A stretch of 24,000 nucleotides of DNA from Gloeocapsa sp. PCC 73106 (GCF_000332035.1 NZ_ALVY01000227.1:18270-42269), one strand, 5' to 3'. Positions 7,971 through 10,138 are shown, counted from the first letter of the stretch. Notes: generated from the sequence alone by a model not told the origin. Made by a program: numbers and translations.

Positions 7971-9581
7971 TCAGATATCGTCGTTAGCTAACATCTGGAT
8001 TAAACGTGGTATGCCAGGATCAAAACCACCTAAATCCCAGGATAATGGATCTTGAGGATCAACCAAAGTTAATTGATAAGGAGCTAAACTTACATAAACT
8101 GCTTTGACGTTGGGATTGATTTTCTCGCGATATTCTTTTAAAGCTACGCTAGGGTGTTTTCTTCCCGCCCAACTTTCGCTGTCGGTCCAAAAACAGACTA
8201 CATCGGCATTGAATTTGTTTTTAATCATCCAATCATAGGCAACGCTTGCATCCGTACCCCCAAAATTTTGATTGCTCGTTTTGCCCATCGCTGAACTAAA
8301 GCTATCTTGTTTGGTAATCTTTAAATTTCGAAATTCAGTAGAAAAACCCCGAATCATATAATTTTCTTCCGCTTTAGCGGTAACTAAAGCCATGGTGGTC
8401 GCAATTTCACAGCAGGTTAACCCAACTGAATCTGCCACATAGCCAGACATAGAACCCGAAATATCTACAGCGTGTAAAAACACTTTGTTAGTAGCTTCTT
8501 GAGTATCAAAGGCTAACTCTACGGCTTTTTCGAGAATATCTACAATGCGTGGGACTACTGTCCAAGTTTTGGTACTTTTGCCTAGTTTACCTCCTGATTT
8601 ATAAGTTTTTAGGGCTTTAAGCACGTCAATGGGGTGAATGCGACCTTTACGCAAGTGTTCAGGGTTATTTAAAACTGACTTAACCCGATTTAAGTTTTGG
8701 ACTTCCTCAGTTCTTAATACGCCAATTTCGCTCAAAGACGCTAGGTTACGTAACAAAGCACCGATAGGCATCTGATTAAACAGCAAGCGCCACGCTTCTT
8801 GATCCATTTTCCCTACAGGGGCTGCCATTTCGTGGGTCAGCTTTCCTTGGGCGATCGCTTTATGAGTTTCCTGGGGGTTGCGCTTTAGCCATTCGTACCA
8901 CCAAATCTGAGCTAAAGTTTCGTGAGGAATTTCTTGGGGTAATTCATCCCAACCTTTAATTACCCATTGAAAGAGTTGATTGTGTTCTTCACTAGGTGGT
9001 TTTACGTGAAATAAACGTAATGCATCCCGATGGGCAAATCCTAATCTTTGTTGATACTTCAACAGTTGATAAGCTAGATGCTTGACGTCTGGGTTGGATA
9101 ACCAGTTACGTCCTGCTTCTTTAACGATTTTACCGAAGCCCCGTAAAGATTTAGTGTAGTTAAGCCATTCGTAAAAATGACTCGCGGTACGCACTACTTG
9201 GGGAAAAATCTTAATAAAAGTTTTTTTAGCTTCAGGAGATTGACCCATAGATAGTAATACTAAGGCTAGAATAGGCGCACTGTTATTAATTGCTCTCCCA
9301 TCGCTAGCATAGAGGATTTCTTGACCTACTCTTTCTGCATCTAGGGCGATCGCTTCAGTTAAAACTTTAATAAAATCATCGGTCAACTCTTGTTTACCCG
9401 CATAGTAAGTGCTTTGGGCTGTTCCTACCAGTAAGCAGCGGCGTAACATACTCCAAATACCTGCATCAAAGGCAAAGCCACCAGATCTTCCCTGAATCAT
9501 TTCCTCTTCTCGTCCAGGAAGCGGTTGAGTTTGAGGAGTATATTGTTTATTTTGCTGAATAAATTGATAATTTTTAGCCAT
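7971..9581 (-). CDS. rsr: Rsr, bacterial Ro60 (SS-A) ortholog: TROVE domain + vWA domain
   Basis: 536 aa. The N-terminal two thirds are helical HEAT-like TROVE-type sequence. The C-terminal vWA domain has the MIDAS motif DISGSMS (DxSxS) and the downstream GGTD motif. Y-RNA-like modules lie immediately upstream on the same strand. Confidence 0.9.
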   Translation of the reverse strand: MAKNYQFIQQNKQYTPQTQPLPGREEEMIQGRSGGFAFDAGIWSMLRRCLLVGTAQSTYYAGKQELTDDFIKVLTEAIALDAERVGQEILYASDGRAINNSAPILALVLLSMGQSPEAKKTFIKIFPQVVRTASHFYEWLNYTKSLRGFGKIVKEAGRNWLSNPDVKHLAYQLLKYQQRLGFAHRDALRLFHVKPPSEEHNQLFQWVIKGWDELPQEIPHETLAQIWWYEWLKRNPQETHKAIAQGKLTHEMAAPVGKMDQEAWRLLFNQMPIGALLRNLASLSEIGVLRTEEVQNLNRVKSVLNNPEHLRKGRIHPIDVLKALKTYKSGGKLGKSTKTWTVVPRIVDILEKAVELAFDTQEATNKVFLHAVDISGSMSGYVADSVGLTCCEIATTMALVTAKAEENYMIRGFSTEFRNLKITKQDSFSSAMGKTSNQNFGGTDASVAYDWMIKNKFNADVVCFWTDSESWAGRKHPSVALKEYREKINPNVKAVYVSLAPYQLTLVDPQDPLSWDLGGFDPGIPRLIQMLANDDI

Positions 9582-9627
9582 AATTGCTTGTTTCAGCTCT
9601 TAATGCGTGAGTTTCTCATGAGGTCGA

Positions 9628-9713
9628 TGGAGCAGGCGGGAGTTGAACCCGCGACACCGATAACCCTCATTTTGCGTTCCAAATGGACAAGGAGTAAACA
9701 AAGGTACTGCCCC
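9628..9713 (-). ncRNA. tRNA-like / Y-RNA-like unit A (86 nt; no D arm, eroded Rsr-binding helix, tmRNA-TLD-like acceptor/T arm)
   Basis: Minus-strand RNA: GGGGCAG-UA-CCUUUGUUU-ACUCC-UUGUCC-AUUU-GGAA(C)GC-A-AAAUGAGGG-UUAUCGGUGUC-GCGGG-UUCAACU-CCCGC-CUGCUCC-A.
- Acceptor stem is 7 bp with G3:U70 and discriminator A.
- T stem is a perfect 5 bp.
- The 9-bp upper stem is kept.
- The Ro-type helix has 2 mismatches. Confidence 0.6.
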
Positions 9714-9740
9714 TTGATTTCAACCTTTAGTTCAGGTCGA

Positions 9741-9850
9741 TGAAGCAGACGGGATTCGAACCCGCGACTGTCGGTAACCCTTATTCTTCGGTCTTAATAG
9801 ACAAGGAGGCAAATAAGGAACTTGACGCTCTACCGCTGAGCTACTGCCTC
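9741..9850 (-). ncRNA. tRNA-shaped Y-RNA-like unit B (110 nt; Rsr-binding hairpin in place of the anticodon arm)
   Basis: Minus-strand RNA: GAGGCAG-UA-GCUC-AGCGGUA-GAGC-GUC-AAGU-UCCUUAUUU-GCCUCC-UUGUCU-AUUA-AGAC(C)GA-A-GAAUAAGGG-UUACC-GAC-AGUC-GCGGG-UUCGAAU-CCCGU-CUGCUUC-A.
- Canonical U8, a D arm with GG, and a T loop UUCGAAU.
- 7-bp acceptor stem with G3:U70 and A73.
- There is no anticodon loop. Instead there is a 3-bp stem, an internal loop, a 9-bp stem, an asymmetric loop, and a 6-bp helix with a bulged C capped by a tetraloop. Confidence 0.75.
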
Positions 9851-9877
9851 TTGATTTCAACCTTTAGGTTCGGTTGA

Positions 9878-9998
9878 TGGAGCAGACGGGATTCGAACCC
9901 GCACTTTGCGCACTGCAAGCGATAACCCTCATTTTTCGGCCTCAATAGACAAGATACAAACAAGGATAGAACACGTTCTGCCCTTAAACTACTGCCCC
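9878..9998 (-). ncRNA. tRNA-shaped Y-RNA-like unit C (121 nt; as unit B plus a long variable-arm hairpin)
   Basis: Minus-strand RNA: GGGGCAG-UA-GUUU-AAGGGCA-GAAC-GUG-UUCUA-UCCUUGUUU-GUAUC-UUGUCU-AUUG-AGGC(C)GA-A-AAAUGAGGG-UUAU-CGC-UUGCAGUGCGCAAAGU-GCGGG-UUCGAAU-CCCGU-CUGCUCC-A.
- The architecture is the same as unit B.
- Changes relative to unit B are compensatory or wobble (GUC/GAC versus GUG/CGC; pair 2:71 is G-C versus A-U). Confidence 0.75.
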
Positions 9999-10023
9999 AA
10001 AAATTATTACCCTGTTTAGAGGT

Positions 10024-10100
10024 CCCAGAGACAAGTTTGTGAACAAAGGAACTTGCTGATTCTAAAATAAATCGATAACCTTCGCTCTTCGGCCTCTGGG
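10024..10100 (-). ncRNA. canonical-topology Y RNA (unit D, about 77 nt; termini in the Rsr-binding stem, no tRNA-like module)
   Basis: Minus-strand RNA: CCCAGAGGC(C)GA-A-GAGCGAAGG-UUAUCGAUUUAUUUUAGAAUCAGCAAGUU-CCUUUGUUC-ACAAAC-UUGUCUCUGGG.
- The 5' and 3' ends pair over 11 bp with a bulged C, matching the Y-RNA Ro-binding pattern (GGUC(C)GA / UUGAC).
- A 9-bp upper stem follows.
- The loop flanks UUAUCG and CAAGUU are shared with units A-C.
- Exact ends were not determined. Confidence 0.7.
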
Positions 10101-10108
10101 TGTAGTAA

Positions 10109-10138
10109 GATCTAGGTTTTCTTACCTGATTGTTGCAA
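10109..10138 (-). promoter_or_regulatory. candidate promoter for the Y-RNA array / rsr
   Basis: Minus strand: TTGCAA (10138-10133), an 18-nt spacer, then TAGATC (10114-10109). A start about 7-9 nt downstream would fall at the 5' end of unit D. The -10 match is weak (3/6). Sequence match only. Confidence 0.25.

Follow-up and report, generated by a model that had tools for sequence, protein, structure and literature searches.

The 24,000-nucleotide (nt) stretch of Gloeocapsa sp. PCC 73106 analyzed here (GCF_000332035.1, NZ_ALVY01000227.1:18270-42269; referred to below as the window) carries rsr, a Ro60 ortholog, at positions 7971-9581 of its minus strand, preceded by an array of four RNA modules on the same strand. 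The 536-amino-acid (aa) rsr product combines a TROVE ring with a vWA domain (Pfam vWA_Ro60, 3.5e-36; TROVE, 1.1e-18) and aligned end to end with both Deinococcus radiodurans Rsr (2nvo; residues 15-533, 1.7e-72) and Xenopus laevis Ro60 (1yvp; 4.6e-64). Its sequence matches the TROVE protein of strain PCC 73106 with 100% identity, and a DISGS MIDAS-type motif is readable in the translation. At E ≤ 1e-30, 614 homologs were recovered, and the best 120 of the 614 included many named cyanobacterial TROVE proteins with 74-87% identity. The product is a genuine full-length Ro60/Rsr ortholog, in agreement with a sequence-only reading that had assigned the protein to bacterial Ro60 on its TROVE and vWA domains. 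That reading had also placed four same-strand modules upstream of the start codon, at a distance that our measurement reproduced: modules A to D extend from 519 to 47 nt before the rsr ATG. We consider it probable that these approximately 480 nt 5′ of rsr hold four Y RNAs as a polycistronic set, co-produced with the rsr mRNA.

All four modules are built around a common Y domain, whose parts follow one another as a 6-base-pair (bp) helix with a bulged nucleotide (the Ro helix), an asymmetric internal loop of 1 × 5-6 nt, a 9-bp upper stem and the sequence UUAYCG. The asymmetric loop and the 9-bp upper stem, which the sequence-only reading had described as shared, can indeed be read in A, B, C and D alike. 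In A, B and C, UUGUCU pairs with AG(G/A)(C)CGA over 6 bp with a bulged C, matching the geometry of the bulged GGUCCGA/UUGACC helix of Y RNA that is contacted by Ro60 (PMC4201824). The likeness to the Ro-binding helix noticed earlier is therefore upheld, and UUGUCU/AGRC(C)GA, which had been ascribed to every module, is present in A, B and C but gives way in D to UUGUCC/GGA(A)CGC. The example chosen for lower-helix substitution had been interchanged between modules, as it is B that carries U-G and C that carries U-A. The motif RRGGTTAYCG matched four times in 24 kb against 0.29 expected, once in each module (9658-9667, 9772-9781, 9920-9929 and 10073-10082, all on the minus strand), and TTGTCYNNNNRGRMCG matched three times against 0.02 expected, all within B, C and D. 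UUAYCG stands directly 3′ of the upper stem in all four window modules, whatever the topology of the module, and UUA.C was invariant in 39/39 aligned modules of other species. The motif GNCGAAN0-1G was found in strict form only in A (GCCGAAG), with GCCGAAAA in B, ACCGAAG in C and AACGCAA in D; among other cyanobacterial modules, GCCGAAG or GCCGACG is found in many.

Module A (10024-10100, minus strand), supported by its minimum free energy (MFE) fold and motif match, is a classical Y-RNA-type hairpin without a tRNA body, the ends of the RNA themselves forming the Ro helix. Its terminal helix comprises 11 bp, CCCAGAGG(C)CGA / UUGUCUCUGGG, with the bulged C at 10092, and leads through a 1 × 6 internal loop into the 9-bp upper stem GAGCGAAGG/CCUUUGUUC and an apical loop that opens with UUAUCG. 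The MFE was -26.6 kcal/mol, and none of 200 shuffles folded equally well (z = -3.84).

Modules B, C and D place the same Y domain on tRNA-like bodies. Module B (9878-9998, minus strand) was recognized from its sequence, from motif matches and from a family covariance model (R1, described below), and module C (9741-9850, minus strand), a complete tRNA-like cloverleaf, from the Rfam tRNA model, R1 and its MFE fold, which yielded the acceptor, D, T and Y helices. Both have a 7-bp acceptor stem and a T arm with UUCGAAU. Module B consists of the acceptor GGGGCAG/CUGCUCC, the D arm GUUU/GAAC, a variable-arm hairpin, the T arm and A73, and module C of the acceptor GAGGCAG/CUGCUUC, the D arm GCUCAGCGGUAGAGC, the T arm and A73. 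A 7-nt anticodon loop on a 5-bp stem is not present in either; the Y domain, of about 50 nt, stands in its place, and the Ro helix is capped by a short loop, running UUGUCU(9952-9947)-AUUG-AGG(C)CGA(9942-9936) in B and UUGUCU(9804-9799)-AUUA-AGA(C)CGA(9794-9788) in C. Module D (9628-9713, minus strand; sequence and R1) retains the acceptor GGGGCAG/CUGCUCC, followed by A73, and the T arm, and is without a D arm. Its Ro helix, UUGUCC(9690-9685)-AUUU-GGAACGC(9680-9674), has five pairs and a bulged A, and ends in a U-C mismatch; a bulged A was seen in 33/329 members of the family. The earlier description of one hairpin-type and three tRNA-shaped members thus stands for A, B and C, the last also matched by the Rfam tRNA model, and applies to D only with the reservation that a D arm is lacking, although R1 still finds it.

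The tRNA-type units of the window share further details. G3:U70 and A73 occur in all three, at acceptor pair 2:71 C has A-U where B and D have G-C, and the encoded 3′ ends read A-UCA or A-UCG, without CCA. An alanine identity suggested by G3:U70 and A73 was rejected as a general feature because position 3:70 elsewhere in the family is G-C, A-U or G-U. Between B and C lies a spacer with the hairpin CAACC/GGUUG (9851-9877, minus strand), and between C and D a spacer with the small hairpin CGACC/GGUUG (9714-9740, minus strand). The two spacer hairpins are conserved with each other, including an A-U to G-U change, and may aid processing. Farther upstream, a GUGGUGG...CCACCAC acceptor-like hairpin with an unrecognizable interior (10154-10200, minus strand) is a possible remnant of a fifth module: with filters off, R1 matched it at 7.3 bits (E = 0.14) over the acceptor strands only. 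The hairpin is similar to acceptor stems seen in the modules of other species.

A protein-guided scan provided 80 cyanobacterial rsr loci, to which three near relatives were added via the exact protein, giving 83 loci. They belong mostly to Nostocales and also to Aerosakkonema, Coleofasciculaceae, Crinalium, Plectonema and another Gloeocapsa. In 78/80 loci, the 3 kb upstream of rsr contain 2-7 Y-domain hairpins; counted over all loci, 331 such hairpins share the strand of rsr and 2 are on the other one. From an alignment of 39 mutually diverse tRNA-type modules, RNAalifold recovered the acceptor, D, upper, Ro and T helices. The proportion of paired cells in this structure was 97.9%, compared with 87.2% in column shuffles and 43-53% when the partners were slid. 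Changes on both sides were found in 20/30 pairs, among them 8/8 in the acceptor, 3/5 in the T stem and 3/6 in the Ro helix, and compensatory changes were present in every helix. The U-A, U-G and G-C pairs flanking the bulge were nearly invariant, and the nucleotides of tRNA tertiary structure (U8, A14, G18, G19, G53, U54, U55, C56, A58 and C61) were invariant or at least 90% conserved. The covariation in orthologous rsr-upstream regions to which the sequence-only reading had looked was therefore found, and its view that the array preserves RNA structure and not a protein is sustained. Protein coding was rejected, as open reading frames (ORFs) inside the array reach only 40-72 aa on either strand and the conservation is explained by RNA covariation. 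The single-sequence fold was significant for A only, with z-scores of -0.45, -1.97 and -1.28 for B, C and D, so that structural support for these three comes from the comparison with other loci.

R1 was built from the 39-module alignment, whose seed includes B and C of the window; their scores of 89.4 and 81.2 bits are therefore not independent evidence. Module D, a non-seed member, was found at 41.6 bits (E = 1.4e-9). Module A, at 6.5 bits, gave no match to this tRNA-topology model because its own topology differs. Across the 83 loci, R1 produced 372 matches at E ≤ 1e-3, and among the 300 matches listed all were on the rsr strand.

The survey also brought out variation on this theme. In 58/80 loci an extra Y module lies about 50-100 nt past the rsr stop codon (for example, L033:4642-4757 and L010:4613-4725); the downstream modules of L033 and L010 are without a D arm, and the bulged nucleotide is A in 23 across the 58 loci. 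In L033 a U run comes after the downstream module, which may also serve as a terminator. No Y module was found downstream of rsr in the window, and its upstream module D, without a D arm and with a bulged A, resembles this downstream subtype of other cyanobacteria. Across loci the Y domain was seen in three circular permutations (L016:2267-2401, L084:2600-2802 and L084:2005-2050): attached to the tRNA body via the upper stem, attached via the internal loop, with the Ro hairpin followed by an upper-stem hairpin, or free-ended as in module A. Locus L084 also has one tRNA body with two tandem Y domains and a bare Y-domain hairpin. Inner modules of other cyanobacteria show an extra G-1:C73 pair, and the rsr-proximal module of these arrays ends in CCUUU. 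Different modules recall different tRNA bodies, including some with class-II-like D arms and variable arms. As a unit, the Y domain seems self-contained, tolerating the three permutations.

What is understood of Y RNAs in bacteria comes from three organisms, and YrlA, the widespread class, is by definition a tRNA mimic in circularly permuted form. In about 80 cyanobacterial loci and in the window, the Ro site and the tRNA-like body are joined in the opposite way. Modules B and C have, as read from sequence, a real, un-permuted tRNA topology with ends at the acceptor stem, and D is a reduced form of it. This assignment follows from acceptor covariation within modules, capped Ro helices, encoded CCA and the fit to the Rfam tRNA model. 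Model RF00005 matched module C at 47.7 bits (threshold 29) over model positions 1-71 with a 51-nt insertion, and it gave 15 module-spanning matches above threshold in 15 other loci. Acceptor strands paired at 6.9/7 positions within a module and at 5.6/7 between neighbors, with 5 or fewer in 32/95 distinct neighbor pairs. GNRA tetraloops cap 243/271 Ro helices outside the window clade, and N73-CCA or C-ACCA is encoded after the acceptor strand in most inner modules elsewhere.

The array could instead be parsed as ordinary permuted YrlA-type RNAs spanning neighboring modules, each starting at an AGGCCGA strand and passing through the T arm, a closed "acceptor" stem-loop made from the spacer and the D arm of the next module to a UUGUCU strand, so that its ends would pair as the Ro helix. 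YrlA RNAs indeed consist of a T arm, a closed acceptor-like stem-loop and a D arm, and end at the Ro site (PMC4201824), and the Rfam YrlA model RF02553 does align across neighbors. It joins the Ro strand of C to that of D at 9681-9795 (model positions 1-114) and the T arm of B to the D arm of C at 9827-9903, taking the B-C spacer with its flanking acceptor strands as a long "acceptor stem-loop", which spacer hairpins could lengthen. A handful of YrlA-like RNAs from cyanobacteria, noted by Chen et al. 2014 (PMC4201824) for a "longer acceptor stem", would also fit, although what was described there is most likely a tandem array read over module boundaries; the same authors caution that tandem tRNAs give false YrlA matches (PMC4201824). 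The YrlA order of parts is obtained only by reading across two modules. The two window matches scored 24.5 and 25.8 bits against a gathering threshold of 69, and the model found no match in 15 other cyanobacterial loci. The Rfam Y RNA and YrlA models, which the sequence-only reading had named for a check, thus failed to recognize the array, Y_RNA (RF00019) giving no match at E ≤ 10 within 9400-10500. Against permuted units, moreover, acceptor strands covary inside modules and not across neighbors, the Ro helix is closed by a 4-nt loop, and CCA is encoded past the acceptor 3′ strand in other species; such units would also leave the first and last modules of the array as unpaired halves. We regard this parsing as improbable.

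It is also unlikely, in our judgment, that the modules act mainly in cis, as Rsr sites in the rsr 5′ untranslated region that control the stability or translation of its own mRNA. Their place after a candidate promoter and before the rsr start, uninterrupted by any terminator, would suit such a role, and so would a Ro look-alike hairpin at the Shine-Dalgarno sequence in 69/85 other loci, which fits autoregulation. The window clade, however, is without that hairpin; a covarying tRNA body, conserved tertiary nucleotides and encoded CCA would be superfluous for a simple binding site; a module also lies downstream of rsr in the 58/80 loci mentioned above; and the Mycobacterium smegmatis precedent is one of stable Rsr-bound RNAs. 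The cis-regulatory and small-RNA roles are not exclusive and can coexist. If the modules were tRNA genes, decayed or interrupted by introns, or else a repeated mobile element, standing beside rsr by chance, this would account for the Rfam tRNA match of C and for the varied tRNA bodies that the modules resemble. Yet ARAGORN found no tRNA and no tmRNA in the window, the anticodon loop is gone, the insert itself is conserved and covarying, and the modules keep their link to rsr and its strand across 83 loci from several cyanobacterial groups while the flanking genes vary. A chance association of this kind is very improbable.

We return, then, to the polycistronic set of Y RNAs, and we infer its course of expression largely by analogy. 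The YrlA and YrlB of M. smegmatis are encoded upstream of rsr and carried on one precursor, and both bind Rsr, and YrlA is cleaved by RNase P and has CCA added (PMC4201824). By the same route, the cyanobacterial array would be co-transcribed with rsr, and the tRNA-like bodies would serve as processing signals, with RNase P cutting at G1 of B, C and D. The 3′ ends would be trimmed to N73 and probably then receive CCA, and module A would be freed by the cut at B together with trimming. These cuts would release stable RNAs of about 85-125 nt and a free rsr mRNA. Each RNA might then bind Rsr via its bulged helix, on the outside of the Rsr ring, while the tRNA-like elbow could act as an effector-binding or protective module, as has been proposed for YrlA. 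The elbow could tether Rsr to PNPase or another tRNA-binding factor for the degradation or repair of structured RNA. Co-transcription of the array and rsr is plausible because a scan found no terminator-like site between them on the minus strand.

Several observations weigh against this scheme. The candidate sigma-70-like promoter upstream of the array, TTGACA-17-TATCGT just after hpf (10335-10363, minus strand), agrees at 10/12 consensus positions, but this is a consensus match only, from a scan that was overall no richer than shuffles. The single-sequence folds of B and D were no better than those of shuffles. Module D may bind Rsr poorly because of its bulged A and the U-C mismatch at the near-invariant U-A pair. 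With no CCA encoded at the window module ends, its addition would need to be post-transcriptional. At the three variable Ro-helix pairs, pairing in cis (2.89/3) and in trans (2.74/3) did not discriminate between the two arrangements, and among the rsr loci no conserved neighbor gene hinting at an effector, such as PNPase or RtcB, was found. A bolder extension, which we advance only tentatively and hold to be doubtful, is that the Y RNAs of cyanobacteria mimic tRNAs down to their true ends, being processed by RNase P, tailed with CCA and possibly aminoacylated, and that they bring Rsr, borne on the anticodon arm, to the tRNA-handling machinery, with tandem arrays being ancestral and the permuted YrlA having arisen when the RNA ends shifted from the acceptor stem to the loop of the Ro hairpin.

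The rsr leader and the surrounding genes complete the picture of the locus. Between module D and the ATG, the 46-nt leader of the window (9582-9627, minus strand) is without a Ro-site look-alike hairpin. In the 69/85 cyanobacterial loci cited above, such a hairpin stands directly before or overlaps the rsr Shine-Dalgarno GGAG (for example, L033:2970-2995 and L084:2972-2995; UUGCCC-GCAA-GGG(C)CGG), and compensatory variants such as UUGCUC/GAG(C)CGA exist. Comparison of the leaders across 85 loci showed it to be absent from the window and its closest relatives (L081-L083). The hairpin of the related loci suggests that Rsr may repress translation of its own mRNA there. Just upstream of the array, hpf (10450-11046, minus strand) encodes a long-form ribosome hibernation factor with S30AE and C-terminal domains. 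Directly downstream of rsr are an 82-aa ORF without a Pfam match (7700-7948, minus strand) and a 157-aa GNAT acetyltransferase ORF (7211-7684, minus strand), which may together (7211-7948) be one frameshift-split GNAT gene; past them lies a Ser/Thr kinase fused to an FGE-sulfatase domain (5166-7106, plus strand). In the 84 other loci, rsr was not flanked by counterparts of the window's hpf, GNAT and lipB genes, and the kinase fusion was likewise no conserved neighbor. The conserved unit is rsr with its RNAs, and the flanking genes vary. Elsewhere in the window, a group II catalytic intron (RF00029) matched at 20146-20222 on the minus strand (50.8 bits against a threshold of 40). A phage origin of the modules was considered and rejected: scanning viral contigs with AGGCCGA-N5-10-GGGTTATCG gave 94 single matches, by rough estimate about what chance yields for 16 fixed bases, and none of the 94 was preceded by a UUGYCY hairpin.

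Parts of this arrangement are already known, namely Y RNAs adjacent to rsr in bacteria, the tRNA-like module, several Y RNAs per precursor and a few cyanobacterial YrlA-like matches. Full-text searches that combined cyanobacteria with Ro60 or Y RNA found only two relevant papers, Chen 2014 and Wang 2018. Within that literature, key reviews being beyond our reach, we found no description of an un-permuted tRNA topology with a capped Ro hairpin on the anticodon arm, of conservation in both Ro strands as in metazoa and Deinococcus, of 2-7-unit arrays as the cyanobacterial rule, or of a classical hairpin Y RNA mixed with tRNA-type units as in the window. The sequence-only reading had taken the array to be undescribed for cyanobacteria. 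This is too broad in that some cyanobacterial YrlA-like RNAs have been reported (Chen et al. 2014), and within the literature consulted it holds for the un-permuted arrays. The array explains why cyanobacterial Y RNAs have mostly been missed and are absent from the Rfam YrlA family.

Set beside known systems, the cyanobacterial modules share with YrlA (RF02553; Salmonella, M. smegmatis, many other bacteria and phages) the position adjoining rsr on the same strand and the joining of a Ro-binding segment to a tRNA-like module of D arm, T arm and acceptor. YrlA, however, is permuted and ends at the Ro site, whereas the cyanobacterial modules follow the real tRNA order, end at the acceptor stem and bear the Ro helix in the place of the anticodon, as a capped hairpin. 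Both strands of that helix are conserved here, whereas the 5′ strand alone can be recognized in the YrlA of Salmonella and M. smegmatis (PMC4201824). In this respect the modules are closer to Yrn1 and Yrn2 of D. radiodurans and to metazoan Y RNAs, in which both strands are likewise conserved (GG(U/C)(C)CGA with UUG(A/Y)CY), the bulged helix leads into an internal loop and an upper stem, and several Y RNAs lie beside rsr. Module A reproduces this layout, its ends forming the helix, with the bulged C at helix-strand position 9, but B, C and D embed the Y domain in a tRNA body, and UUAYCG is a feature of the cyanobacterial family.

Module D, with an acceptor stem and T arm and no D stem, also recalls the tRNA-like domain of tmRNA, as does the combination of G3:U70 and A73 in B, C and D, although G3:U70 is not conserved across the family. 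The Rfam tmRNA model RF00023 had its best sub-threshold match on D, but at only 36.4 bits against a threshold of 47, aligning only the acceptor and T arm; D is without pseudoknots or a tag reading frame, and the real tmRNA is a separate gene. The b7a-tRNA of Burroughs and Aravind 2016, a predicted tRNA-like RNA of RNA-repair neighborhoods that sometimes adjoins rsr, resembles an authentic tRNA, so far as the available description goes, whereas the modules here are without an anticodon loop and carry a Ro site. A further parallel is the dimeric-tRNA model for how YrlA originated (Sim and Wolin 2018, via the citation in bioRxiv 10.1101/312249). The stretch of the array from one insert to the next has the YrlA order of T arm, acceptor and D arm that the postulated precursor would have had. 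As represented in that citation, the model was proposed without an extant example, and each unit here differs in having its own complete Ro site. On this comparison, the cyanobacterial array is a present-day example of the tandem-tRNA state proposed as the source of YrlA, and its un-permuted units may show how tRNA-like Y RNAs arose.

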